The notes: generated from the letters alone by a model not told the origin. 64,000 bases of DNA from Clostridium sp. CAG:217 (GCA_963624095.1 CAVFNZ010000001.1:3841-67840); one strand, 5' to 3'; shown: positions 27,725-42,260, counted from the stretch's first letter. Numbers and translations are program-made.

Positions 27725-28528
27725 CTATAGGTTTGAGCGGTGACTTATTGTCATGCGTACGATATAAACGCTCACTTCATAGAGCAGCCACATCGGGAGG
27801 GAGACCAACAACAGCGTGAAGACATCGGAGGTGGGGGTGATGATGGCGGCGATGATGAGAATGACGACAATGGCATGTCGACGGTAGCGGCGCATGAACG
27901 TGTCCGTGATGAATCCCAACTTGGCGAAGAGCCAACAGAGCATGGGCATCTCGAAGACGACACCCAACGAAAGGCTCAGCAGCGTGAATGTGGAGACGTA
28001 CGACTCCAACGAGATGAGGTTGTTCACCGCTCCACTTACCTGATAGGTACCCAGAAAACGGAAGGTGAAGGGGAAGATGAGGAAATAGCTGAGCAACACG
28101 CCGGCCAGGAAGAGCAGGTAGCCCCAGCCGACCACACGCACCGCATAGCGACGCTCGTCCGCGTAGAGGGCGGGAGAAACAAACCGGAACAGCTGGTAGA
28201 GGATGTAGGGCGAGGCGCAGAGAATGCCCGCGTAGACGGCGACCTTCATGTGGATGAGGAACTGTCCGGCCAACGCCGTGTTGATGAGGTCTACATGGAA
28301 CGTTCCCGTCTCCTCCTGTTGCAGCAGGGGAGCGATGAGGTCGAACAACCGATAGGTGACGAAGTCGGCATCCTTGGGTGCCAGTATCACCCGGAAGAGG
28401 AGGTCCTTGAAGCAAAACAACACGACGCTACACACGATGACAATCACCGCGATGCGGATAATCATCGTGCGCAGCGCCTCCAGGTGATCCCAGAAGGATA
28501 GTTGTGCCAACTCCTTGTCTTTACTCAT
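27725..28528 (-). CDS. tatC: Twin-arginine translocase subunit TatC
   Basis: [27 protein letters not shown]...[14 protein letters not shown]. Confidence 0.95.
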
Positions 28529-28718
28529 CCTTCTTGTCGGTAGGAGTCCCTTGCTTGCTGTCCTTGCCTTTCTCCTCTTCGGGGTTGTTCATACCCTCCT
28601 TGAAGGCGCGCACGCCTTTGCCCAGACCCTTCATCATTTCGGGTATCTTCTTGCCACCGAAGAAGAGCAGGATGACCAACAGGATGACGATAATCTCTTG
28701 TGTACCGATTCCAAACAT
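28521..28718 (-). CDS. tatA: Twin-arginine translocase subunit TatA
   Basis: GTQEIIVIL...[25 protein letters not shown]. Confidence 0.95.
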
Positions 28719-28720
28719 AA

Positions 28721-29230
28721 CTACTTACGTATTATAAAGTTGATAAACAGATATCCTCCAAAGATTTGCAATAGCATGCCGGGCACGGCGATGCGGAAAT
28801 CTTGCAAGGCGGCGTAGAGGCTGCCGCACCAAGCCCACTCGAAGAGGGTGCCCAGTGACTGGTAGAATAGAATCACTCCCAGCAATAGGGCTATCGTGAC
28901 CTTGTGATAGCGATGGGCGGCATAACCGCATCCCACAGCCAAAAGGGCCGATTTCACCGCAATAGCGGGCACTACAGCCAAGGTTGGCATGCCGAACAAC
29001 AACGAGTTGATTGCGGGCGACAGCAGGGCTGTGAGCAGTCCCACCTTCCATCCGTATTTGTAGGCACCGATAAGGGTGAAAAAATAGATGGGCAACCACA
29101 TTTTCCCTCCCATGGGGACGAGGTGGAAGAGTTGAGGCAACGCGATGTTGCCGACGATAAACAGCAGGGCCAACAGATAGGTGCGGCTCTCCGTATAACT
29201 ATAGTTGTAGAGTTTTACTGATGTTTGCAT
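28721..29230 (-). CDS. ECF transporter S-component-like membrane protein
   Basis: 169 aa with about 5-6 TM helices; PQLFH...[20 protein letters not shown]...SP...GMP. Confidence 0.65.
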
Positions 29231-29685
29231 GTTGTTACATATTTGTTTTCAATGTTTTTTGTTTCTTGTTCCGTCCGAACTGAGCGCATGAACGTTTCCA
29301 CTTCCCGTAGACACTCCTCAGCCGTGTGGCACTCCTTACAAAGGGTCTCCATGGGACACCAGCCGGTGTGGTTACGGTTGATGATGTGGTCTACTTGCTC
29401 GGTGTAGTGAATTTGCATGGAGGATTGCCGCAGCAGTTCCAGTGCGAAGGAACTGATAATGTCCGCATAGAGTTCCTTCACACCGCCCAACAGCATCAAG
29501 GCGGCAGCGGCTTTGCCTACCACCTTGTCTGCCACGACGGCTTCCCGAAGCATCCGAGGCTCTTCGGTGAGCAACCTGTAGAGGTCTGCAACGCCCCGGT
29601 TGTCGAAGCAGCGTGTTGTCTCCCCTTGTCGCACCACTAAAGAGTGGTTTCCTTGGTGTAGTCGTTCAGTCAGTTCGTTTGTCAT
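29215..29685 (-). CDS. DUF1893 (TM1506-like) domain protein
   Basis: RGVADL, VADKVVGKAAA, IINR...CPME motifs. The true start is ATG 29685, overlapping the AKR stop (ATGA). Confidence 0.8.
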   Translation of the reverse strand: MTNELTERLHQGNHSLVVRQGETTRCFDNRGVADLYRLLTEEPRMLREAVVADKVVGKAAAALMLLGGVKELYADIISSFALELLRQSSMQIHYTEQVDHIINRNHTGWCPMETLCKECHTAEECLREVETFMRSVRTEQETKNIENKYVTTCKHQ

Positions 29686-31100
29686 ACCGTGGGGTCTTGT
29701 TTCAGTTCTTCCACAAAATTGTTCACGCGCTGCATCTCTTGAGGGATGCGGATGCGTTGCGGACAATGACTTACACACTCGCCACACCCGATGCAGTGAC
29801 TGGCCTGACGCAGACGCGGCACGCTGCGGTCGTACCCGATGAGGAACGCGCGCCGTGCCCGGCGGAAGTCCGGATGCTCGTTCCCCTTGTTGGGCATATT
29901 GCCCTCCTTGATGCACCGGTTGTAGTGCGAGAAGATGGCGGGGATGTCGATGCCGTACGGACAGGGCATGCAGTAGTTGCACTCGTTGCACGGAATCGTC
30001 TTCAGGTTGTAGATGTCGTTGGCGATTTCCATCAGGAAGTCGTTCTCCTCCTCATTCAGCGGTTTCAGCGGTGAATAGGTGCAGAGGTTATCCTTGAGGT
30101 GCTCCATGTAGGTCATGCCGCTGAGTACCGTGAGCACTCCGTCCGGTGTGCCGGCAAAGCGGAAAGCCCAGCTCGCCACGCTCTGTTCGGGTTCGCGCTG
30201 TTTCATCTTCGCCACGATGGGGTCGGGAACTTTGGAGAGTCGCCCACCCAGCAAGGGCTCCATGATGATGGCAGGGATATCTCTTTTCTTCAGCTCGCCA
30301 TAGAGGTATACGGCATCGGTGTTGCGGTCGTTTATCTCATCGGCGTAGTTCCAGTCCAGGTAGTTGAGCTCTATCTGCACGAAGTCCCAATGGTAGCGTC
30401 CCTCGTCGTGCCATTGCAAAGCGAGGTCGAAAATCTTGATGTCGCCGTGGTACGAGAAACCGAGGTTGCGGATGCGTCCCTTCGCTTTCTGTTCCACCAG
30501 CCAGTCCAGTATGCCGTTGTCCATGTAGCGGGCGTTGAAGTCCTTCAGGGCGTCGTTGCCCATGCCGATGCCGTGTAGCAGGAGGTAGTCCACATAATCC
30601 ACCCGCAACTCCTTCAGCGAGTTCTCGAACATGGCGATGGAGGCCTGCCTTGTCCAGGTAGCCGGTGCGAAGTTGGAAAGTTTGGTGGCTATGAAATAGT
30701 CCTCCCGGGGATGGCGGCTCAAGGCGATGCCGGTGCTTCGTTCCGAGAGGCCGCGACAATAGGCGGGGGAGGTGTCGAAGTAGTTCACGCCATGCTCCAG
30801 GGCATAGTCCACTTCCTGGTTCACCATTTCCTGGTCTATCTCCTGGCCTTTCCCGTCACTGCCGGTTCCCTCCTCCTTCATGGGGAGTCTCATCATGCCG
30901 TATCCTAACAAAGATATGCGATTCCGTGTGTTCGGGTCTATCCGATAGGTCATTTGGCCGATGGGAGGTTCGTGGGGAGTAAAGGAGTCCGAGAATCCTG
31001 TTTTGCCTTTGCATCCGGGCAACAGGGAGAATGACGTAGCGGCAATGGCACCGCTGCCAAGCATCTTCAGGAATTTTCTTCTGTCTATCTCTTTCTTCAT
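29682..31100 (-). CDS. Aldo/keto reductase with C-terminal 4Fe-4S motifs and a Tat lipoprotein signal
   Basis: IDRRKFLK...LLPGC signal; AKR tetrad D/Y (FDTSPAY), K (ATKL), H (LLLH); CNECNYCMPCP and CIGCGECVSHCP. Confidence 0.88.
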   Translation of the reverse strand: MKKEIDRRKFLKMLGSGAIAATSFSLLPGCKGKTGFSDSFTPHEPPIGQMTYRIDPNTRNRISLLGYGMMRLPMKEEGTGSDGKGQEIDQEMVNQEVDYALEHGVNYFDTSPAYCRGLSERSTGIALSRHPREDYFIATKLSNFAPATWTRQASIAMFENSLKELRVDYVDYLLLHGIGMGNDALKDFNARYMDNGILDWLVEQKAKGRIRNLGFSYHGDIKIFDLALQWHDEGRYHWDFVQIELNYLDWNYADEINDRNTDAVYLYGELKKRDIPAIIMEPLLGGRLSKVPDPIVAKMKQREPEQSVASWAFRFAGTPDGVLTVLSGMTYMEHLKDNLCTYSPLKPLNEEENDFLMEIANDIYNLKTIPCNECNYCMPCPYGIDIPAIFSHYNRCIKEGNMPNKGNEHPDFRRARRAFLIGYDRSVPRLRQASHCIGCGECVSHCPQRIRIPQEMQRVNNFVEELKQDPTV

Positions 31101-31123
31101 CTTTTAGTCTTTTGAGGGTGGGG

Positions 31124-32602
31124 TTAAACAATGCGGTGTTTCTCGTGTCCTTCCACGTAGATGGCACTGAACGGGCGGGCGGGACAGAGGTTCTCGCAGG
31201 CTCCGCAGCCGATGCAGCGTTCGGTATTGACGACCGGTACCATGGGCGATTGCTCATTGTCGGGGTCGGAGTTGACCATCGTGATGGCTCTGGCTGGACA
31301 GTGGCGTGCGCAGTTGCCGCACGCTACGCCGTCGGTCAGTGGGATGCAGTTCTTGCGTACCCACACGGCGTGGCCTATTTGTATGGCAGTCTTGTCCGCC
31401 CTCGTGATAGGCCGTATGGCTCCGGCGGGGCAGACCTCACCGCACTTCGTACATTCCGGTCGGCAGTAGCCCCGCTCGTACGACATAATAGGTTGCATCA
31501 AGGTCGTCAGCCCCGTGGATGGGCGCAACACGTCATTGGGGCAAACCGTGACACAGAGTTGGCAGGCGGTGCAATGACGCGCCATATTGTTGGCCGAGAG
31601 CGACCCCGGAGGGGTGATGGCCGTCTGGCGTTCGGGGGCAATCTTATCGGCAATGGCTGCCAATCCGCCATCCACCTTTTTCTTTTCTTGGGCCATTGCC
31701 ATTGTCGAGGCGGCTACGGCTGTGCCGATGACGAAAGTCCGTCGACTTGCGTCCACCGCTATCGGCTCGATATTCCCTTTCGGGTGACTGAATGAGATGG
31801 CGCCTTTGCGGCAGACACCGATGCAGTTGCCGCAAGTGACGCAGCGGGAGTAGTCCACCGTGTGGTTCTTGCTATCTATGCACGCTGCCTTGCAACTGCG
31901 TTCGCACAATCCGCATTGGTTGCATTTGGAGGTGTCCACATGAATCTTCAACCAAGAGAAGCGGGCAAGGAAACCCAACACGGTGCCGACGGGACAGATG
32001 GTGTTGCAATAGGTGCGTCCGTTGCGCCACGCCAGCACGATGAGTGCTACGAAGGTGACGGCAGCAATCACGAACGTGGGCAGACTACGCATCCACACCT
32101 CCTTCTCATAGAAGGCATAGCTGTTCTGTCGCTCCGCCAGATAGGCCAATGCGTTATTCCCCCAGTCGTAGAGAGGAGCGAACAGATTCTGTACGATGCG
32201 CCCGTAGGAGCTGTAGGGAGCCAACAACGCCACAAGCGACCCAATGCCCACCAGGACGGCGACTACGAACAGGACCAACACCGCATAGCGCAGCCAGCAC
32301 TTGGCCGGGCTGTAGCTGAAGCGGTATTTCTTCTTTTTTCGTCGCCCGCTTAAGGCGGAGATAACATCTTGGAACACGCCCAGCGGACAGATGACCGAAC
32401 AATAGATTCGCCCGAAGAGGAGGGTCAGTACGAGAAGCCCCAGTATCACGCCCGCGTTGAGGGCCAGCACGGCAGGCAAGAGCTGAATCTTCGCCAACCA
32501 TCCGAACCACGCATGGAGCGTACCGGTGAAATCGAGAAACAAGGCCGTGATGAGTAGAAACGTCACCGAGGCCAACGCCAGTCTTATGTTACGTAACGTC
32601 AT
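31124..32602 (-). CDS. Membrane polyferredoxin (NapH-like membrane domain fused to a NapG/MauM-like domain)
   Basis: TM helices, two CxxxCP motifs (YCSVICP, YCNTICP), six ferredoxin-type Cys clusters, internal SRRTFV. Confidence 0.85.
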   Translation of the reverse strand: MTLRNIRLALASVTFLLITALFLDFTGTLHAWFGWLAKIQLLPAVLALNAGVILGLLVLTLLFGRIYCSVICPLGVFQDVISALSGRRKKKKYRFSYSPAKCWLRYAVLVLFVVAVLVGIGSLVALLAPYSSYGRIVQNLFAPLYDWGNNALAYLAERQNSYAFYEKEVWMRSLPTFVIAAVTFVALIVLAWRNGRTYCNTICPVGTVLGFLARFSWLKIHVDTSKCNQCGLCERSCKAACIDSKNHTVDYSRCVTCGNCIGVCRKGAISFSHPKGNIEPIAVDASRRTFVIGTAVAASTMAMAQEKKKVDGGLAAIADKIAPERQTAITPPGSLSANNMARHCTACQLCVTVCPNDVLRPSTGLTTLMQPIMSYERGYCRPECTKCGEVCPAGAIRPITRADKTAIQIGHAVWVRKNCIPLTDGVACGNCARHCPARAITMVNSDPDNEQSPMVPVVNTERCIGCGACENLCPARPFSAIYVEGHEKHRIV

Positions 32603-32644: not shown

Positions 32645-32710
32645 CAAAGGTACAACAATTTATCTATTCCTACTTGTACCCAATTTACTGAATTTAGTAC
32701 CATGATTACC
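32645..32710 (-). promoter_or_regulatory. Promoter (-7 TACCTTTG) with an upstream 21-bp-period direct repeat
   Basis: -7 element at 32645-32652. The minus strand reads GTAATCATGGTAC...GTAAATTGGGTAC. Confidence 0.55.
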
Positions 32711-32789: not shown

Positions 32790-33794
32790 CTATAACTCCC
32801 GGATTTGTTTTTCTGTCAATCCCGTGGCGGTCACAATCTGGTCAACGCTGAGACTCATGGCTTTTAGGCTGCGGGCTATTGAAAATCGTTCTTCTTCACG
32901 TCCCTCTTCACGTCCCTCTTCACGCCCCTCTTCACGTCCTTCCGCACGTCCTTCCGCACGTCCCTCCGCACGTCCCTCCGCGCGTCCTTCCTTGAGCCCC
33001 TGGATGTGGCCTTCAACACGGCCTTCTTCATAACCGTCGTCGCGGCTCGTGTCGAAGAGGCTGCGCATGTGGCGCACTGACTCCATATAGCGGTAATAGG
33101 CTCGTTTGTCTTTCTCGGGCAGGGAGTCCACGCGCAAGTACTCACGCGCCTCGGTAAGACCGGCAGCTTGGGTCGTGTCACTAATCTTTCCCGTCTTGAG
33201 GAACTCTATCCATTCGTCAAGAGGCGTGGTGGCGACCTTGTCAAAGTCGTTCACCCGCAGGATGTAGTACTCCGGGAACAACTCGCCTGCGTCTCTCCGC
33301 CGGTTGGTATCCGTTTCCTTTATGCCCAGGAATTTCTCGCTTTGGTGGGCGGACAGCTTAAGCAAGTCGTGGGGTGCATGAATTCCCTTGAACTCGGTTC
33401 TCCCGTGATAGACATAGTCCTTTCCTTGGCCGAGCTCAAAGTAGACGATGTTGATGGAGTAGATTTTCCGCACCTTGTCGTAGGGGTCACCTTTGCCGAT
33501 GTATTCCGTAATGGCCTTGGACACCCCGTATAACATGCGGTGAAAATAGGTTATCTCGTGGCTGTTTTGTATCTCGATGATTATCAACTCTCCGTTCTCG
33601 CTCTCCGCGAGGATGTCCACACGGTTATACTTGTCCAGCTCTTCCTCTTGGTTGCTTTCGCTTTCGAGGAAGCGTTGGATAACCATCTTCTTCCCCAACA
33701 GGGAAAAAAGCAATCCCTCCAAAACCGCATGGTTGGTCTTGTTTCGGAGCAGGCGTTTCATCGCCCAGTCAAATCGGATATAATTGTCTTCCAT
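32790..33794 (-). CDS. Rpn-family recombination-promoting nuclease / PD-(D/E)XK putative transposase
   Basis: YIRFDWAMKRLL, RVDIL...IIEIQ, EWIEFLK, EGR-repeat tail, ATGLT..QI. Start set at ATG 33794, downstream of the promoter. Confidence 0.92.
   Translation of the reverse strand: MEDNYIRFDWAMKRLLRNKTNHAVLEGLLFSLLGKKMVIQRFLESESNQEEELDKYNRVDILAESENGELIIIEIQNSHEITYFHRMLYGVSKAITEYIGKGDPYDKVRKIYSINIVYFELGQGKDYVYHGRTEFKGIHAPHDLLKLSAHQSEKFLGIKETDTNRRRDAGELFPEYYILRVNDFDKVATTPLDEWIEFLKTGKISDTTQAAGLTEAREYLRVDSLPEKDKRAYYRYMESVRHMRSLFDTSRDDGYEEGRVEGHIQGLKEGRAEGRAEGRAEGRAEGREEGREEGREEGREEERFSIARSLKAMSLSVDQIVTATGLTEKQIREL
32895..32990 (-). repeat. 12-bp coding tandem repeat, (EGRA)4(EGRE)4
   Basis: CACGTCCCTCTT and CACGTCCTTCCG-type units within the Rpn 3' end. 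Confidence 0.9.
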
Positions 33795-34309: not shown

Positions 34310-35545
34310 ATGGAACTATCGGAAAAAACAATCGATTTCATCAAACAGAATGCGGAAGCGGATGTTCGTGTATTAGCCCTGAAGACCAAGCGTGTGGAGG
34401 GAGTGGACTTGCCTCTTGCCCTTACACAGATAGCCGGGCGACAGACAGCGCGAAAGAAGCTGCCCACATGGGGAATGACGGATGGTATCCTCTATGCTCC
34501 GCACCTGCCGTTGGAACAATGTTCATCCGAAATCACCGCACGCTACAAAGCCACGCTCGTCAGAGGCGAGAGCTTTGCAGACCTTTCCGCAGGCTTCGGC
34601 GTGGATTGTTTCTTCCTCTCCGCACAGAAACGTCGGGCGGTCTATGTGGAACGACAAGCTCTGCTTTGCGACATCGCGCGGCATAATTTTCCGCTACTCC
34701 GTAAAGACTCTGAAATCGAGGTGGTGAATGCCGACTGTACGGAGTATCTGCATCAGATGGCGAAGGTGGACTGTCTATACATTGACCCGGCCCGGCGGGA
34801 TTTACACGGACGTAAAACAGTGGCTATTGCCGATTGTGAACCGGACATCTGCAAACTCGAACCGTTGTTGTTGGAAAAGGGGGAGACGGTACTTGTCAAA
34901 CTATCCCCGATGTTGGACATTACTCAAGCCTTACGCAGCCTCTCTTTTGTTAAGGATGTTTATGTCGTTTCGGTGCAGAACGAGTGTAAGGAACTCCTGC
35001 TTCGCCTCTCCTTGGACAAGGTCGAGGATGCTCCCCGCATACACTGCGTCAACCTGTGGCCACGGCATGAACAGGAAAACGCCCTGTTTACTTTACCGGA
35101 CGGGATAGGAATATACTGCTCATCTTTTAGCTTTACCCCAAACGAGGAAACCACTGCTACCGTGGCGTACACCGACTCCGTGGGGTCATACCTTTATGAG
35201 CCGAACGCTTCGCTGCTGAAAGCGGGTGTCTACAATAGTGTGGGCATCCGGTACGGCCTACTGAAGCTACACCCCAACAGTCACCTCTATACAGGGGAAA
35301 CATATCAGCCCGATTTCCCCGGCCGTTGTTTCTCTGTAGAACAAATTCGGGGCTTTGGCAAGAAAGACCTGAAAGCCTTGGCAGCGTTGAAGCAGGCCAA
35401 TGTAACGGTGCGCAACTTCCCCTCTTCCGTGAATGAGTTGCGCAAGAAACTGCATTTGACGGACGGAGGCGATACCTATCTCTTCGCCACAACACTTGCC
35501 GCGGGTGAGAAGGTTCTCCTCCAGTGCCGTAAAGGTAAAAAGTAA
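34310..35545 (+). CDS. Class I SAM-dependent methyltransferase with a C-terminal THUMP-like domain
   Basis: LEQCSSE, ADLSAGFGVD (motif I), YIDPARR, VKLSPMLD, YLYEPN, RNFP. Confidence 0.8.
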   Translation: MELSEKTIDFIKQNAEADVRVLALKTKRVEGVDLPLALTQIAGRQTARKKLPTWGMTDGILYAPHLPLEQCSSEITARYKATLVRGESFADLSAGFGVDCFFLSAQKRRAVYVERQALLCDIARHNFPLLRKDSEIEVVNADCTEYLHQMAKVDCLYIDPARRDLHGRKTVAIADCEPDICKLEPLLLEKGETVLVKLSPMLDITQALRSLSFVKDVYVVSVQNECKELLLRLSLDKVEDAPRIHCVNLWPRHEQENALFTLPDGIGIYCSSFSFTPNEETTATVAYTDSVGSYLYEPNASLLKAGVYNSVGIRYGLLKLHPNSHLYTGETYQPDFPGRCFSVEQIRGFGKKDLKALAALKQANVTVRNFPSSVNELRKKLHLTDGGDTYLFATTLAAGEKVLLQCRKGKK

Positions 35546-35560
35546 GGGGTTGAATATCCC

Positions 35561-37891
35561 CTACGCATAGCTGTGCATGCCGCCTAACAGGAAGTTCACA
35601 CCGAAGTAGGTGATGAGTACACTGAGGAAGGCGATGACGGTGAACAGATGGAAGAACAGGGGACGACGAAACCGATCTAATGATGCCGTATGTAGGGCGA
35701 ATGAGTAGATGAGCAGCGTGATGAGAGCCCACACTTCCTTGGGGTCCCAACCCCAATAACGACCCCAGGAGACATTGGCCCATACGGCTCCGATGAAGAT
35801 ACCCGTGGCCAGGCAGAAGACGGCAGGGTAGAGCAGGATGCGGCTCAACACTTGCAGCCGTTCTATCTCCTCATTGTGCGACCCCTTGGAACTGCATAGC
35901 ACCAGTGCCGTTACGCCATTGAGCATCATAAAAGCCAACAGGGCATAGGCCACCATGATGACCATTACATGCAGACTCAGAAGGGGTGACGAGAGGACTG
36001 GCATCAGTTGTGTGATTGGTGGGTTGGCTTCGCCAAAGCGTGCCACCATTAGTGCCAAACCGCAGACCAGGAACCCGAAGGCGGTAGCTGCGGCTAATCG
36101 ACGCTGCATCACGAACGACAGCAACAAGGCGCATACCGCCATGCACTGCATCGTTTCGTATCCGTTAGACATCGGTAGGTGGTGGCTCACATATCCGCGC
36201 AGACAGAGTAATAGCGCCAAGAACACGCAGATGACACCCCCGAAGAGCTGTATCCATAGCTCAACTTTCGTTGCTTTGTGGGATTCGCATGCTCTTTTCT
36301 CAACCTCTCCCTTCCCGTCTGCATTTTCGTTTCTTGGAGGGAGGCCGTTAGCCTCTTTCTTTTGGCCGTTGGGGATATTATTCGGTTGGTCATTTGTTTC
36401 TTCCTCTTTCCTCGCAATTATCTTACGGAGGTAACGAGCGAAGCTCATGATACCCAGCAGTATGCAGACGACGGCGATGGGGAGGTTGCGGTTGAGTTGG
36501 TTATAGAGCAGTTCGGCTTGGATGCGACTTTCCGAGGGGAGTTGATTGCCGCCTTCGGATTGTTGGAACTTACGCAGCTTCTTTAACACTTCCAACGTAC
36601 GTCCCGTGTTGCCCATCGCGACTTGTTCACCCAGATAACTCATGCTTTTGTGGATGAAGAGGGATTTCTCCGCCTCCATCGCTGCGGGCAGTTGGTCTGC
36701 CGGTGAGTACCAACGCAGTGCCTGTGAACTGTCCGTATGGCACGGGAAGAGCTTCAGCAGGCTTCCTGTGCAGACCATACTCACTAAGTTGAACTTCTCG
36801 TTGGCTTCTTCTATGGCGCGTTTGTCCTTCGGACTGTCCGGGGTACGCAGTGCCTGCTCCAGCTTGTAGCCATGCAAGTCCACGAAGTCACGCAGTGAGG
36901 CATAGTCTCCCTCGATTCCCAATAACGAGCGTACCCGTTCATTTTTGATGCGGATTATGGGCTCTTCTTTCCACTGGTCGTAGTAGAACACCCATCCGCT
37001 CAGCACTTGGTCGGCTGTCAGTCCGCGGTACGAGTTCTTGCCGCAGAGCTTTACCGTGAAGTCATGTGCCAGCGTTTGCAACGGGCATACCCGTTCGTTG
37101 TAGTACACATAGAGCCGTCCCCATTCCGCTGCCGCTTCCTTCGGAAGGGATTTTGGCTCTGCGGCGAGAATCGGGGTGGGTAGCAGTAGTAATACGGCGA
37201 GTGCGCCTTTGCGCAATAACGGATGGCGCAGTAACTGACGGAACTGGCTTCCTTTTTGGAAGAAAAAAAGAATCATGTAGAGGAGCAGCAATGCGTAGCC
37301 GGTATAAGAGAGGAAGATGCCGTAGGGGTCGTGCGCCACGGAGAGGGTAGTGCCCCTTCCGTCGCTGTCGTAGCGTGACTGATAGAAGCGGTAGTGTCGG
37401 TAGTTGCAAATGCGGTTCATCGCTACCTGCTCCTCGTGGCGTTCATTGCCATCGATGATGGTCAGTTCGCTCACGAAATCCATCGGGGCTTGCGTGCCGG
37501 GGTAGTAATCCAAATGAAAAGCTTTCAGTGTCAGTCCAAAGGGTAGGGCATGCGTCTCTCCGTTGTTGTCCGTGAACGTGCTGATGGCATCTTCGCCTTG
37601 ACGCAGATGGATGCTGCCGTACTGCCCCGTACAGTAGGTGATGAACCCTCCTGTCAGGATAATTCCAAAAGAGAGGTGCAACCCGAAGGTCGCTGCTTTC
37701 CGTTGCACCTTTTGCCGCAGCAGATAGCAGAGGCTGAATAGGGCGGCGACACCCCATAGTCCCACAAACAAAGGTGATTCGTAGACGAAATGAGTGACGA
37801 AGTCCGTCCCGTAACATTTCTCCACTACCGTGGCACTTGCCAGTATTATCACCAGCAAGGCGGTCAGTCCAAAAGATAGCGTTCTCATCAT
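35561..37891 (-). CDS. ccsA: Fused system II cytochrome c synthase (CcsB/ResB-CcsA)
   Basis: WWD motif GAVWANVSWGRYWGWDPKEVW, conserved His residues (GLHLS, SLHV, ALH, GMHSYA), ResB-like N-terminal region. Confidence 0.9.
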   Translation of the reverse strand: MMRTLSFGLTALLVIILASATVVEKCYGTDFVTHFVYESPLFVGLWGVAALFSLCYLLRQKVQRKAATFGLHLSFGIILTGGFITYCTGQYGSIHLRQGEDAISTFTDNNGETHALPFGLTLKAFHLDYYPGTQAPMDFVSELTIIDGNERHEEQVAMNRICNYRHYRFYQSRYDSDGRGTTLSVAHDPYGIFLSYTGYALLLLYMILFFFQKGSQFRQLLRHPLLRKGALAVLLLLPTPILAAEPKSLPKEAAAEWGRLYVYYNERVCPLQTLAHDFTVKLCGKNSYRGLTADQVLSGWVFYYDQWKEEPIIRIKNERVRSLLGIEGDYASLRDFVDLHGYKLEQALRTPDSPKDKRAIEEANEKFNLVSMVCTGSLLKLFPCHTDSSQALRWYSPADQLPAAMEAEKSLFIHKSMSYLGEQVAMGNTGRTLEVLKKLRKFQQSEGGNQLPSESRIQAELLYNQLNRNLPIAVVCILLGIMSFARYLRKIIARKEEETNDQPNNIPNGQKKEANGLPPRNENADGKGEVEKRACESHKATKVELWIQLFGGVICVFLALLLCLRGYVSHHLPMSNGYETMQCMAVCALLLSFVMQRRLAAATAFGFLVCGLALMVARFGEANPPITQLMPVLSSPLLSLHVMVIMVAYALLAFMMLNGVTALVLCSSKGSHNEEIERLQVLSRILLYPAVFCLATGIFIGAVWANVSWGRYWGWDPKEVWALITLLIYSFALHTASLDRFRRPLFFHLFTVIAFLSVLITYFGVNFLLGGMHSYA

Positions 37892-37920
37892 CGTTTTTGG
37901 TTTATGGCTGAATGACACGA

Positions 37921-37970
37921 AGAGGTTGGGATTGGGTCTTCCCTATGAGAAGACCTGTTTCCCAACCTCT
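37921..37970. terminator. Long stem-loop between the dihaem gene and ccsBA
   Basis: AGAGGTTGGGA..GGTCTTC / GAAGACC..TCCCAACCTCT. Confidence 0.6.
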
Positions 37971-37988
37971 CGCTTGTATAGATAAGAC

Positions 37989-39650
37989 TTAGATGGCATC
38001 CAAGAATTTCACAATGGCGGCGCGTTCCTCCTTTTTCAGGTTACGGAACTTCTCCACCGTGTAGCGTGCGTCGCTCTCGGAGTTCCCGTGCCACATGATG
38101 GCTTCCATGGTGGTGCGTGCGCGACAATCATGCAGACGATCGGCATAGGAAGATCCCGTACATTTTTGGTGCAGTCCGCGTCCCCACAACGGGGTGGTGC
38201 GGCACCAACCGGTGCGGATATCGTTCTCCATGCAGAGCTTATGCTGCACCATGTCGGTGTAGGGCCAAATCTTTTGATTGGGGAAGCGCGGCAGACGGTC
38301 GTCGTCGTACTTGAAGAATTTGGCGGGGTCGCGTATGATGTCGCTGCCTGTAGTCCATGTCGGTCGGTGGCAATAGTCACATCCTATTTCCGAGAAGAGC
38401 TTCTTGCCCAACTGCACCTCTTCATCGTCCAAATCACGGGCGGCAGGCACGGCCAAACCTCGGTGCCAAACCATGAGGTCAATGAAGTCCTGATCGCTCA
38501 TCTCTGCGTCCAGCGTCGTGGAGGTGAGGTAGTTCTTGATGTTGTCCTCCACATTGTCCGTGTGCCATTCGGGGTGTTTCTTCTCCGGGTCTATCTGTGC
38601 GATATAAGCGGGGAATCCGGCTTGAACCTCCGGGTCTTTCGACGAGTAAGTGGCGTAGGTGCCAGCCGCGTCCAGATAGTGGTAGCGGCGGTCGCTACGT
38701 GTCACGTTGGTGATGTTCCAGATAGCGTTGGCTCCGGCTGCGTCCTGCAACGGTCCGCGGCTCAGTGCGTAGGTGTAGCGCAACGGATAGAGTGTTCCGT
38801 CGCCCTGCTTGCTGTTGCTGTATTGTTTCACCCATTCCCCGTCCTTGAAGATGCTGGGGTTCAGTCCGTGCTTCAGGTAGCCGTCCTTCTCCTCTTGAGC
38901 GTATTGCGCCTTGATGTCGCTGTCTTCAATCGCGTCAATCAGTCCGGTACCATAGATGCCGATGGTGCTTTCGAGCAACACCTTGTAGTTGGCATCCGCT
39001 GCCGGGATTTCATATCCTTGGTTCACCACATAGAGGGCCTCTTTGGGCATCGTCACCTCCGGATAGCGCAGCTGATAGGATTCCCCGTCGGGAAATTTAT
39101 TGCCCCATTCATCGGTGTATTCTTTCCACTCCACCCGAATCTTCGACCCGTCTACCGGAGCCTTGAAAGGTTTGGTGGCGTGCATCTGTGGCATACCGGC
39201 CAACCAGGTGACGTAACCGTTGGTACTCGGATTGAAGACCACTAAAAGATAACCGTTGCCTATTTCGTTGGTCTCGAAAGTGCCTGTAGGGATGCTCTTG
39301 CCGTGGCCGTATCCCGGATGGCAGTGCTGACACGAAGAACGCACATAGGCCGGACCCAGTCCGCTCCGCGTTCCTTCGGTGTTGCTGGTGAATGGTTTCT
39401 CGAACAGAGCCTCGCCGTGCTTGAAGGATTGGTACATGCCCGAGGACTCTATCACCGCTGCCGGCTGTTCATAGGCTGATGACGAGGCGTTGAACGAAGT
39501 TCCCAACTTGCCGCCCGTGTACCAGTCGTCGGCCAGTTCCTTCCCTTTGTCATCATCGTTTTCGCTGTTCCCGTTGTTGTCATCGCTGCACCCCCACAAG
39601 GAGATGAGACCCATGGCTACGGCGGGAATCCAAAGTTTGCTTTTCTTCAT
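37989..39650 (-). CDS. Di-haem oxidoreductase family lipoprotein (DUF1111-like)
   Basis: LWGC lipobox, GLGP...SCQHCH, GCDYCH, RTTPLWG, LHDCRA...AIMWHG. Confidence 0.85.
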   Translation of the reverse strand: MKKSKLWIPAVAMGLISLWGCSDDNNGNSENDDDKGKELADDWYTGGKLGTSFNASSSAYEQPAAVIESSGMYQSFKHGEALFEKPFTSNTEGTRSGLGPAYVRSSCQHCHPGYGHGKSIPTGTFETNEIGNGYLLVVFNPSTNGYVTWLAGMPQMHATKPFKAPVDGSKIRVEWKEYTDEWGNKFPDGESYQLRYPEVTMPKEALYVVNQGYEIPAADANYKVLLESTIGIYGTGLIDAIEDSDIKAQYAQEEKDGYLKHGLNPSIFKDGEWVKQYSNSKQGDGTLYPLRYTYALSRGPLQDAAGANAIWNITNVTRSDRRYHYLDAAGTYATYSSKDPEVQAGFPAYIAQIDPEKKHPEWHTDNVEDNIKNYLTSTTLDAEMSDQDFIDLMVWHRGLAVPAARDLDDEEVQLGKKLFSEIGCDYCHRPTWTTGSDIIRDPAKFFKYDDDRLPRFPNQKIWPYTDMVQHKLCMENDIRTGWCRTTPLWGRGLHQKCTGSSYADRLHDCRARTTMEAIMWHGNSESDARYTVEKFRNLKKEERAAIVKFLDAI

Positions 39651-39676
39651 TGTCGTTTAATGTTTTTAGGGGTCTG

Positions 39677-40801
39677 TTATTTATTAATCAAATCGAGGGC
39701 TTCGTCCAGAGCATCCTTCAGATTGTTGCAGGCATCGATGGCCTCCTGATTCTCTCCGAACGTCAAGTGGTCGCGGAATGGAGACGGCATCGCCTCAATC
39801 TCCCTGATGGCCTCGTCGATGGCTTCGCGGATTTTTGTATCCAGGGCACTGTCCAAATCTTTGATGTAGACACTTAGGGAGTGCTTGCTGATGGTGCCGT
39901 CCAATGTGCCATAGTAAGCGTTGCGTACACTGCGGATGTTGTCGGCGAAGTCGGTGATAGAGTTCCAACTGTACCAGGACTCCACATCGAGCACGTTGCC
40001 CGATGTGCAGGGGTCTGTAATCTTTGTGTTACCCACCTCATCGGAGATGTCGCTCGCACCGGTCAGAATCTCCTCGAAAGCGGACTTCTGTGTCTTGTAT
40101 TTCGAGTTGCCTGCCAGTCCGGCGTTCTCCATCTGCTCGCCATAGTTCAAGGTTGGCTCCATTTCGGCATCTGCCAAAATTTGCTGTTTCTCTCTGGTCA
40201 CGTCGTCCAGTCCGTCCCATGCGGCCTCCAGACGGATGCAGTGGTTGCGCATGTTCTCCGCTACGGCCGTAGCATAGGTCAGCTCCAGGTCTGAGATTTC
40301 GTTCACCGCACGAGCTCCTCCATTGCGGAAGATGACGTATTCAATGGCATGGAAGCCCTTCAGACCATAACCCAGATTGTCCACATCGAGTTTGTAGTTT
40401 GGGTTCTTCATGTTGTCCAACAGGATGTCCAACTGAGACTTTTCCAGTGGCCACGAGTCAATGCTCGGGTCGATGTTGTAGTCCGCTGCCGCACCGAAGA
40501 GGAAAGCCTCGCTCAACTCCCAGTACTTGCGCGCTTTGATCCACTTGTCGCAGGCCGTCTGCACATGGCTCTGGTCTTTGTTGGCTTCCAACGCTTCGCA
40601 GGCATCGTAGAGTTCCATTGAAGCGTCTGCCAAAGACCTGTAGGTGCTTACTACCACGTCCTCTACATAGGTCTCGATAATCTCTTTGTTGTTTTCTTCG
40701 ATGGATTCATCGTTGTCGTCATCGCTGCTGCATGAACTCATCGTACCGCTCACAGCCAACGCGGCCGTGAACATCAGTGCGTACTTAAAAATCTTTTTCA
40801 T
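39677..40801 (-). CDS. Imelysin-like (peptidase M75) iron-regulated lipoprotein
   Basis: MSSC-SSDDD lipobox, WELSEAFLFG, IDSWP, GFHAIE (GxHxxE), EVGNTKI. Confidence 0.88.
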   Translation of the reverse strand: MKKIFKYALMFTAALAVSGTMSSCSSDDDNDESIEENNKEIIETYVEDVVVSTYRSLADASMELYDACEALEANKDQSHVQTACDKWIKARKYWELSEAFLFGAAADYNIDPSIDSWPLEKSQLDILLDNMKNPNYKLDVDNLGYGLKGFHAIEYVIFRNGGARAVNEISDLELTYATAVAENMRNHCIRLEAAWDGLDDVTREKQQILADAEMEPTLNYGEQMENAGLAGNSKYKTQKSAFEEILTGASDISDEVGNTKITDPCTSGNVLDVESWYSWNSITDFADNIRSVRNAYYGTLDGTISKHSLSVYIKDLDSALDTKIREAIDEAIREIEAMPSPFRDHLTFGENQEAIDACNNLKDALDEALDLINK

Positions 40802-40847
40802 CGTTATTTATGCGTTAGTTATTATGTTATACCTATTGATTAACTGG

Positions 40848-42260
40848 TTACATGTCGAAGAAGCCTGAGTAGGCCACTCCCACGCTCAGCGTGTTTTCGT
40901 TGTTGTATTGACTCTTGAATATGCGGTGTGAATACTCCGCCTTGATGACGATGCCTTTCATCGGCATGAAGTTGATGCCTCCGGCAACGCGTTGGCGACC
41001 CCAACACTCGTTGTCGATGATGCTGCCTTCGGTTTTGTACATTGAATCGTAGTAGTCGTAGCGTCCGAAAACATAGCATTTCTTCCCTGTGCCGCGCGTC
41101 TTCTCCATCTGTGAGAAGATGTCGTATCCTGCCTCCACACCAACGGCGATGGCATCCGAACCGACATTCGTCTTGGGCGATGGTGAATCCTTGCGCGAGC
41201 TGATGTTCGCTTTAGATATCTTTTCAGAGTCCGTCAGGTGACCATAGTCCACGTTGCCGCGTACCACCCAATTGTGTGCGTCGTAATGGAAGTCGAAAGC
41301 CCCCAGTGTCACCGTGCCGTTTAATCCTTTGTAGCTGTCCGGTTTCATGCTGTTGGAGGCTGAGTTGCCTATGTAGCCGCTTAAGCCCAGACGCAATCCG
41401 GGAATCGAGTAGTTGTCGATGCGGAAGGCTCCGGCGTAGGCTGTCGCTATCTTGAACTCGTAGGGACTTCCCGCTCCGCCCTTTATCCAGTCTTTTGCTC
41501 CGAAGCGGTCGGCATCCAGTCCGGCGAGGAACTGCGCCTCGTAGCGCCATTTGCCCACGTTACCCCAAAGGCTGATACCCGTTTCGTGCCAGGTGCAAGG
41601 CATGATGGAACTCTCCCCTTCGGGACGGTATACGGTGAAGAATTCCGTTGGCATGTGATGCTGATTGGTCAATCCCACCGGTACAATGATGTGTCCCATA
41701 CGAAGGTTCAATGCCGGGCTGAATGACTTTTGAATCCAGAACTGCTCCAGTGCCACTTCGCCACCGCGCTCTATCTCACTCTCGTACTCTCCGGTCTCCT
41801 CCTCCTCAATCTCGATGGCGGATTCCGTACCTCCGTGCTCAAACTCTATCTCACTGCCCATGGTCCAACCTTTGCCGAAGTCGTAACCCACGAAGAAAAC
41901 CACATGTGGCAGGTCGAACTGTCCGTAGCCTTTGTCGTCCTTATATTTTGACGCGTCCGTATATCGTTTGTAGTTGTTGCTATAGAACATGCGGCTCATC
42001 ACGGCCTCGCCATATCCGCCTAATGTCAACCTCGATTTCTTGCGCGGCGCCTCCCGTTGTTGCGGTATGGCCTCGGTATCTGCCGCCTCCAGTGTCAAAT
42101 TGTTGTTTGTCTCCTTGCCCACCGTCATCGTTTGTCGATCAGTGTTCTTCTCTACCTTTTCCGTTGAGGTTTCTTGTGTGGTACTGTCTGTCACAGCGTA
42201 AGCAGGCACTGCCATCAGTGCTGTCAGACAACCCGAAACCATCCATAGCTTTGCTCTCAT
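40848..42260 (-). CDS. Outer-membrane beta-barrel / porin-like protein
   Basis: Signal peptide, LGGYGE, SEIEFEHGG, GEVALEQ, acidic loop EIEEEETGEYESE, C-terminal VAYSGFF. Confidence 0.75.
   Translation of the reverse strand: MRAKLWMVSGCLTALMAVPAYAVTDSTTQETSTEKVEKNTDRQTMTVGKETNNNLTLEAADTEAIPQQREAPRKKSRLTLGGYGEAVMSRMFYSNNYKRYTDASKYKDDKGYGQFDLPHVVFFVGYDFGKGWTMGSEIEFEHGGTESAIEIEEEETGEYESEIERGGEVALEQFWIQKSFSPALNLRMGHIIVPVGLTNQHHMPTEFFTVYRPEGESSIMPCTWHETGISLWGNVGKWRYEAQFLAGLDADRFGAKDWIKGGAGSPYEFKIATAYAGAFRIDNYSIPGLRLGLSGYIGNSASNSMKPDSYKGLNGTVTLGAFDFHYDAHNWVVRGNVDYGHLTDSEKISKANISSRKDSPSPKTNVGSDAIAVGVEAGYDIFSQMEKTRGTGKKCYVFGRYDYYDSMYKTEGSIIDNECWGRQRVAGGINFMPMKGIVIKAEYSHRIFKSQYNNENTLSVGVAYSGFFDM

Follow-up and report, generated by a model that had tools for sequence, protein, structure and literature searches.

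Genomic evidence for candidate salvage of a nickel-pincer cofactor by TM1506 and an S-component beside a probably Tat-exported, quinone-linked aldo-keto reductase

The 64,000-nucleotide stretch of the Clostridium sp. CAG:217 assembly analysed here (GCA_963624095.1, CAVFNZ010000001.1:3841-67840; the window) carries on its minus strand, at 27725..32602, an operon of six genes encoding a polyferredoxin, an aldo-keto reductase (AKR) with an iron-sulphur (Fe-S) domain, a TM1506/DUF1893 protein, a protein resembling the S-components of energy-coupling factor (ECF) transporters, and the twin-arginine translocation (Tat) proteins TatA and TatC. The operon very probably represents a conserved periplasmic module in which the AKR is linked to quinone. 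TM1506 and the S-component would, we think with fair confidence, stand in for the pincer biosynthesis genes larBCE, and we lean, at somewhat better than even confidence, to a reading in which the two salvage a nickel-pincer cofactor for the Tat-exported, quinone-linked AKR. The sequence comparisons below thus offer new genomic evidence for nickel-pincer salvage by TM1506/S-component helpers; the literature searched, in which work on Bacteroides Tat and AKR proteins is incompletely covered, yielded no publication that deals with this operon or with the uptake or salvage of a pincer cofactor.

All six open reading frames (ORFs) are intact, and their translations and successive junctions (+23, -4 as an ATGA overlap, -16, +2 and -8 nt) bear out the tight packing reported by a first-pass annotation of this DNA. 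The polyferredoxin gene (31124..32602, 492 amino acids) encodes a polytopic protein in which a NapH-like half, of membrane and cytoplasmic parts, is fused to a NapG-like half, with profile matches at residues 177-273 and 284-475 respectively, both under their cut-offs. It is followed by the AKR-FeS gene (29682..31100, 472 amino acids), with an AKR profile match (E 4.3e-33) and two Cys motifs, by the TM1506 gene (29215..29685, 156 amino acids; TM1506 profile E 2.9e-49) and by the S-component-like gene (28721..29230, 169 amino acids), which combines a weak PF12822 match with a predicted S-component fold. The products of tatA (28521..28718, 65 amino acids) and tatC (27725..28528, 267 amino acids), each one of two genomic copies, score over the TatA and TatC profile cut-offs.

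Both Fe-S proteins carry export signals. The AKR opens with a Tat lipoprotein signal motif (31011..31100), DRRKFLK at residues 6-12 and then the lipobox Cys30, in which R7, R8, F10, K12 and C30 are at least 97% conserved across 77 Tat-type homologues. The twin-arginine motif of the polyferredoxin, SRRTFV (residues 286-291), is internal, not N-terminal, and begins a putative signal (residues 286-304; 31691..31747) ending AMA/Q305, a predicted signal-peptidase-I site of Q-rule type; RR is kept in 74 of 76 distinct homologues and A/S before Q in 71 of them, two of the 76 being truncated. The twin-arginine motifs and quinone link proposed by the first-pass annotation are upheld, the polyferredoxin being by sequence a NapH-NapG-type wire. 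Since the A/S-Q end matches the signal-peptidase-I pattern given for Bacteroidetes (the Q-rule) in the accessible part of PMC5837995, the NapG-like half is probably cut free into the periplasm after Tat crossing.

A dual Sec/Tat polyferredoxin type with an internal Tat signal, PFD, has been shown by reporter fusions in the portion of PMC5449189 available. As in PFD and the NapGH quinol dehydrogenase, a NapH-like half, an internal twin-arginine motif and a NapG-like Fe-S half are combined in the operon protein, and the segment after its RR is, as in PFD, weakly hydrophobic (under the 1.6 hydropathy threshold) with positive charge following (QEKKK). It differs from PFD as described there in that this segment ends in a conserved A/S-Q site, which speaks for cleavage rather than for a fifth anchor helix, and from both systems in that its partner is an AKR, not a nitrate reductase. 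No characterised pathway was found in the literature searched. The parts of the operon are better known than the first-pass annotation implied, given PFD and the linkage of TM1506, AKR and a 5TM protein in the accessible text of PMC3239186. A predicted complex of the AKR with the NapG domain scored 0.60 against 0.24 for the best control, with runs sharing at least 66% of contacts and a partner pLDDT (predicted local distance difference test) of at least 86; with 157 solved and 215 mismatched pairs for reference, 116 of the former and 2 of the latter reach the mark applied, 18 solved pairs and both mismatches doing so at 0.60 or less, and the prediction lends the pairing weak support. A crude scan of 1610 host ORFs gave four N-terminal Tat-like motifs, with obvious cofactor motifs only in the operon AKR. 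Elsewhere in the host genome a 154-residue ORF (C42:2038-2502) resembles a modified-peptide precursor, having a leader of twin-arginine-like type and a region of repeats rich in Cys.

TM1506 is present in 17 of 24 same-genus genomes, searched with a single-protein query, in 26 of 300 genomes of the order and in one of 300 genomes of the phylum. In the 43 genomes of the genus and the order Bacteroidales, several of whose loci are cut by contig ends, the genes lying no more than 5.5 kb from TM1506 include an AKR (36), a polyferredoxin (33), an S-component (29), tatA (21), tatC (20), a specific TonB receptor (8) and DUF362 (3). The full set recurs at 18 of the 43 loci, 14 of them same-genus, confirming that the six families are co-located. 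The first-pass annotation had further made tatAC an integral part of the operon and its own translocase; the operon does hold a tatA-tatC pair, but the pair is missing from the locus in 23 of the 43 genomes (a few of them cut by contig ends), and a second pair lies on contig C109 (L001:147-1194), its TatC 45% identical to that of the operon. The C109 pair stands upstream of genes that resemble, on translation only, purF and pepT. At 80 metagenome loci the genes usually run polyferredoxin, AKR, TM1506, TonB receptor and S-component, and tat genes adjoin the module in three of the loci shown. An annotated record of Bacteroides finegoldii shows the core of four genes and no tat. These counts, loci and record mark out a conserved core to which tatAC is an optional addition. 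Three same-genus genomes (L260, L261, L262) have polyferredoxin, AKR, tatA and tatC, with TM1506 and the S-component not found.

An AKR outside the cytoplasm meets no free NAD(P)H, and passing hydride to Fe-S clusters normally needs a converter. The operon AKR has the complete canonical NAD(P)H tetrad Asp/Tyr/Lys/His (D109/Y114/K140/H176) and a C-terminal domain of 2x[4Fe-4S] type (C371-C380, C436-C446), and among its nearest solved relatives is NphT (PDB 9YEB). The text of PMC13524815, as far as accessible, identifies His144 of NphT as nickel ligand and Lys200 as covalent tether, gives 40% as the share of larC-adjacent AKRs that have the His but lack the Lys, and for some AKRs suggests binding of the dinucleotide NPAD; that portion of its main text mentions neither Fe-S, transport nor salvage. 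The operon AKR shares with NphT the AKR barrel, the tetrad and, by alignment, a histidine at the nickel-ligand position (His218, 30447..30449), and is distinct in having Glu281 in place of the tethering lysine, in keeping the adenine-helix Asn, and in its added Fe-S domain and Tat lipoprotein signal. With larBCE neither nearby nor found in the host genome (82.6% complete), the lysine and larBCE tests both place it outside NphT. Its subfamily may already be among the AKRs listed in that paper's supplement.

The histidine is kept in 91 of 98 distinct AKRs from TM1506 loci, that is in all 90 Fe-S AKRs and one NphT-like AKR, the remaining seven being unrelated bystanders without Fe-S, and likewise in 14 of 14 AKRs of a class sample (30 Bacillota-class loci). 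Fe-S AKRs with both His and Lys number five among the 98 and two in the class sample. Asn338, which we take to be the adenine-binding position, is lost in six His+Lys sequences and kept in His-only ones, two further His+Lys AKRs also keeping it, a pattern that fits a mononucleotide in the former type and a dinucleotide in the latter. The presumably nicotinamide-binding Ser-Asn after strand 5 is not kept in the operon AKR, which reads S216-Y217-H218 against S-N-F in five of the seven bystanders.

The distribution of TM1506 against lar genes bears directly on where such a cofactor would come from. In the host genome (2.4 Mb), larB, larE and larC over cut-off and LarA were not found, larB having been searched in this genome only, and in it as in other incomplete genomes a missing match does not amount to absence. 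Because no larB, larC or larE is seen there, we suppose that the S-component would bring in the predicted cofactor already made and that TM1506 would likely re-activate it. Among Bacteroidales larC occurs in 0 of 43 TM1506-positive against 8 of 37 TM1506-negative genomes; in B. thetaiotaomicron, a control genome, TM1506 is present and larC gave no match. A Bacillota sample of 251 genomes, drawn from the phylum of a clostridial locus, held 34 TM1506-positive genomes and 217 negatives; set against the 46 negatives that came first, the positives showed larC in 1 against 33, larE in 1 against 32, and LarA in 20 against 21. The 41 LarA-bearing genomes divide into 19 with larC only, 19 with TM1506 only, one with both and two with neither. 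In a draw from the class (280 genomes scored, one unscored) larC was found in 6 of 44 TM1506-positive and 79 of 236 negative genomes (Fisher p 0.007, kin not being independent). His+Lys AKRs were present in all five tested genomes that have TM1506 without LarA. The accessible parts of PMC7583248 and PMC11796402 discuss genomes with larBCE but without LarA, not the reverse, and do not discuss uptake.

Different pincer-type enzymes appear by their sequences to converge on TM1506 loci. An NphT-like AKR (E 8.5e-51, His+Lys) stands directly upstream of a TM1506/S-component fusion (L177), and in another genome LarA lies four genes downstream of TM1506 (L154). The H-x9-K-x15-H spacing of this LarA, for whose lysine and second histidine we presume the LarA numbering, recurs in 10 of 11 TM1506-linked DUF362 proteins. 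DUF362 is placed in the same clan as LarA in the available part of PMC11770544, and His174 of LarA is confirmed as catalytic in that of PMC12611868; no solved relative of DUF362 was found by sequence. In three of eight larC-positive Bacteroidales (two other loci being short) a Tat-type DUF362 and a polyferredoxin 36-41% identical to that of the operon adjoin larC; here the wire seen in the operon stands by the synthesis genes, and these loci (L304, L306, L307) encode a candidate pincer enzyme of the periplasm whose cofactor the host itself would synthesise.

Because the S-component/TM1506 pair recurs beside such unrelated enzymes (LarA, NphT-like AKRs and DUF362), which have pincer-cofactor motifs in common, it more likely handles the cofactor of the AKR than its substrate. 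The first-pass annotation had instead proposed a single small-molecule pathway in which the pair handles either what the periplasmic AKR consumes or what it yields, as the tight, conserved co-location and translational coupling could suggest. We now regard this as very improbable, since the pair adjoins cytoplasmic AKRs of three subfamilies as well as DUF362 and LarA, proteins unlikely to have one substrate in common, and since AKR and TM1506 are often unlinked within one genome.

The S-component itself matches PF12822 only below threshold (18.4 bits, cut-off 30.7), and a Foldseek search of its model gave no match at E<=0.001. The ECF S-like identity first assigned to it is nevertheless supported by its predicted six-helix S-component fold (pLDDT 91.8), which is closest to RibU (Z 15.6, root-mean-square deviation 2.7 over 150 residues), the top 20 rows of the structural comparison all being S-components and the next row scoring 8.4. 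EcfT/CbiQ (PF02361) was not found in the host genome in a search whose control was positive in 11 of 14, so that the protein appears to be of the solitary type. Its ligand could not be assigned by profile, sequence or structure comparison; the best structural matches are riboflavin and other vitamin carriers at 8-16% identity, and a clostridial homologue scores 41.8 bits on a folate S-component model (cut-off 60). The S-component is fused or adjacent to TM1506 at 29 of the 43 Bacteroidales and 20 of the 30 class-sample loci. The salvage that we favour would resemble that of vitamins through RibU, FolT, ThiT, BioY and CbrT in its fold and in import followed by cytoplasmic re-activation in non-producers; it differs in having no assignable ligand, no EcfT found and an organometallic cofactor as proposed cargo. 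B12 was rejected as cargo of the linked TonB receptor, whose best match, a B12-receptor model, reaches 152 bits against a cut-off of 599.7. NudC was likewise rejected as a regular pathway member, being found once among 32 neighbour proteins scanned (of 56 neighbour clusters, some others being scanned separately). A lone NudC-type pyrophosphatase directly after a TonB receptor (L148:10331-11125) could turn a dinucleotide cofactor into a mononucleotide.

The operon TM1506 is assigned to TM1506/DUF1893 by family match, fold and the conserved Asp-Lys-x-x-Gly-Lys and Cys-Pro-x-Glu motifs. It has no signal peptide and a deaminase-like fold, common to FdhD and PurH, that matches 1VK9 (Z 19.8). Its Asp53 (29527..29529), with an inferred tag offset the equivalent of the ADP-ribosylated Asp56 of T. 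maritima TM1506, is kept without exception in the 159 homologues that have a residue at this position; Cys110 is likewise invariant (162 of 162), and Glu113 nearly so. ADP-ribosylation of that aspartate is reported for T. maritima only, as cited in the accessible text of PMC3239186, which in 2011 noted TM1506 together with an AKR, a 5TM protein and fusions to TonB receptors and suggested a part in sensing or regulation tied to NAD/ADP-ribose. Its predicted operons agree with ours in the family, in the neighbours (an AKR with a Cys-rich tail, the 5TM protein and a TonB-receptor fusion) and in the aspartate position; they differ in the reading of the tail (a zinc ribbon) and of the 5TM protein (a channel) and in the redox sensing or regulatory role proposed, and the polyferredoxin, Tat export and a pincer link go unmentioned in that portion. 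In PMC8120803 TM1506 occurs only in the reference list.

In three loci TM1506 is fused ahead of the TonB receptor through an internal signal-like segment ending A-Q or G-Q (L045:7218-9659, L046:7279-9558, L047:7348-9780), and these fusions are possibly cleaved polyproteins. Because the internal signal, which is like that of the polyferredoxin, follows the TM1506 domain, TM1506 would be cytoplasmic; one DUF362-TM1506 fusion would place it outside. Other fusions are of the DUF362-TM1506 and TM1506-S-component types (L067:7817-9442, L177:5470-6567, L300, L301).

In the mechanism that these data suggest to us, a nickelated pincer fragment from producer microbes would cross the outer membrane, by a dedicated TonB receptor in relatives, and then the inner membrane via the S-component. 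Cytoplasmic TM1506 might then, speculatively, rebuild the nucleotide, in the simplest case by transferring ADP-ribose from NAD+ to the imported base by way of Asp53, with NPAD as the product; given salvage, we find such an exchange possible though rather doubtful. The AKR would bind the cofactor non-covalently through His218, gain its Fe-S clusters, fold and, as its conserved signals suggest, be exported by Tat as a lipoprotein, while the polyferredoxin would be inserted by Sec, its NapG-like half crossing by Tat and probably being cleaved at AMA-Q. Hydride from a periplasmic aldose or alcohol would be split at nickel into single electrons, these running from the AKR Fe-S clusters through the NapG-like and NapH-like halves to quinone. 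Substrate and electron direction are guesses by analogy with the nearest solved relatives, which oxidise aldoses. The proposed working resembles both vitamin salvage and a NapGH-fed periplasmic dehydrogenase.

Several observations weigh against salvage. In an RpoB tree that covers 78 of the 80 Bacillota genomes compared (34 and 46), TM1506 changes 13 times and larC 14 times, and the exclusion test on this tree is not significant, independent pairs numbering 5.2 opposite against 0.4 same-way (median p 0.125), nor is it with larC and larE under a post hoc definition (p 0.0625); the exclusion of TM1506 and larC is thus repeated but not proven independent of ancestry. Six genomes of the class sample have both, and T. 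maritima has TM1506 together with larC, larE and LarA. We know of no pincer enzyme in Borrelia burgdorferi. This species has a DUF1893 protein (PDB 9E9A). The linked TonB receptor family was not found in the 82.6% complete host genome, and an operon-type AKR beside lar genes was not found in eight larC-positive Bacteroidales or at 12 Bacillota larC loci. His-type AKRs are present in three of ten Bacillota genomes without TM1506 and larC (one His+Lys), against five of five TM1506-positive genomes tested. In six Bacteroidales genomes the His-type AKR and the polyferredoxin are intact although TM1506 and larC were both not found, and the S-component was not found in the five of these tested, a search with no positive control. 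In the operon AKR itself the NphT lysine is missing and the retained Asn338 fits NAD(P) too.

Tat-exported glucose-fructose oxidoreductase offers a precedent for a tightly bound NAD(P). AKR export and quinone wiring could accordingly be kept with a tightly bound NAD(P) or flavin at the active site, TM1506 and the S-component being an NAD/ADP-ribose regulatory pair, along the lines of the accessible text of PMC3239186, or a vitamin-uptake pair. The missing lysine, the complete tetrad with Asn338 and the six genomes that keep the enzyme with neither supply route all suit such an arrangement, as do the vitamin-carrier matches of the S-component, the folate-model score of its clostridial homologue, and the flavodoxins and FMN reductases that are frequent neighbours of the module. 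We consider it unlikely, as it leaves unexplained the invariant His218, the near-exclusion of larC and larE in three samples, the 19 genomes with LarA without lar genes, and the LarA-motif DUF362 and NphT-like neighbours.

The same distribution would also follow if TM1506 replaced larBCE without salvage, whether as part of a second biosynthetic route, by turning an imported precursor into another pincer-like cofactor, or by acting as a thioamidase that depends on cysteine or as a carrier of sulphur or nickel in place of an ADP-ribosyl transferase. Such roles suit the invariant Cys110, the nearly invariant Glu113 and the fold common to FdhD and PurH. The S-component, in a further point against its part in salvage, adjoins TM1506 in only four of 32 phylum-sample loci; in five of the other 28, from related Bacillota genomes (L165, L168, L169, L170, L175), TM1506 stands directly upstream of a lipoate-protein-ligase-like gene. 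Replacement without salvage nonetheless seems to us quite improbable, since a single protein of 150 residues would have to replace three enzymes, and since S-component fusion or adjacency (29 of 43 and 20 of 30) and the TonB receptor (8 of 43) point to uptake of a complex compound.

A candidate Bacteroidota -7 promoter box, TACCTTTG (32645..32652, minus strand), lies about 43 nt upstream of the first ATG, matches what we take to be the consensus and would fit the single promoter proposed by the first-pass annotation; a looser pattern precedes 46 of 70 homologous polyferredoxin genes, counted with no shuffle control, and three other matches in the region fall within the AKR gene, across the tatA start codon and ahead of a downstream susC-like gene. 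An Rfam search of the window gave no match for a riboswitch or RNA element, and one of seven related loci gave a single match, far from the module. Just upstream of the operon (32790-33794 and 34310-35545) a nuclease gene of Rpn/PD-(D/E)XK type, carrying an EGR-type repeat, stands next to a THUMP-like gene; in the relative L022 the former is missing at this place and the latter is inverted. Beyond them, at 35561-42260, genes for a porin-like protein, an imelysin, a di-haem oxidoreductase and a ResB-CcsA fusion all run one way, probably an iron uptake and cytochrome c maturation cluster.

Cofactor salvage, if true, would give a function to TM1506/DUF1893, a family unexplained since its structure was solved, and would explain the cofactor source of LarA-family genomes without larBCE. 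The pincer cofactor can be made in vitro, according to the accessible texts of PMC13524815 and PMC11796402. We put it at about even that the nickel-pincer cofactor is a cross-fed vitamin, that TM1506, the S-component family and the linked TonB receptor replace larBCE across Bacteroidales and Bacillota, that His-bearing AKR-FeS and DUF362 are pincer enzymes feeding Fe-S chains, and that gut Bacteroidales run a periplasmic, quinone-coupled nickel dehydrogenase with a cofactor that they are unable to make. Even without the pincer link, the literature searched contains no characterisation of a conserved Fe-S AKR that is exported by Tat and wired to a NapGH fusion. With that link, an organometallic cofactor would join those traded among gut microbes, and pincer chemistry would be extended beyond isomerisation and dismutation to an electron transfer that is linked to respiration and lies outside the cytoplasm.

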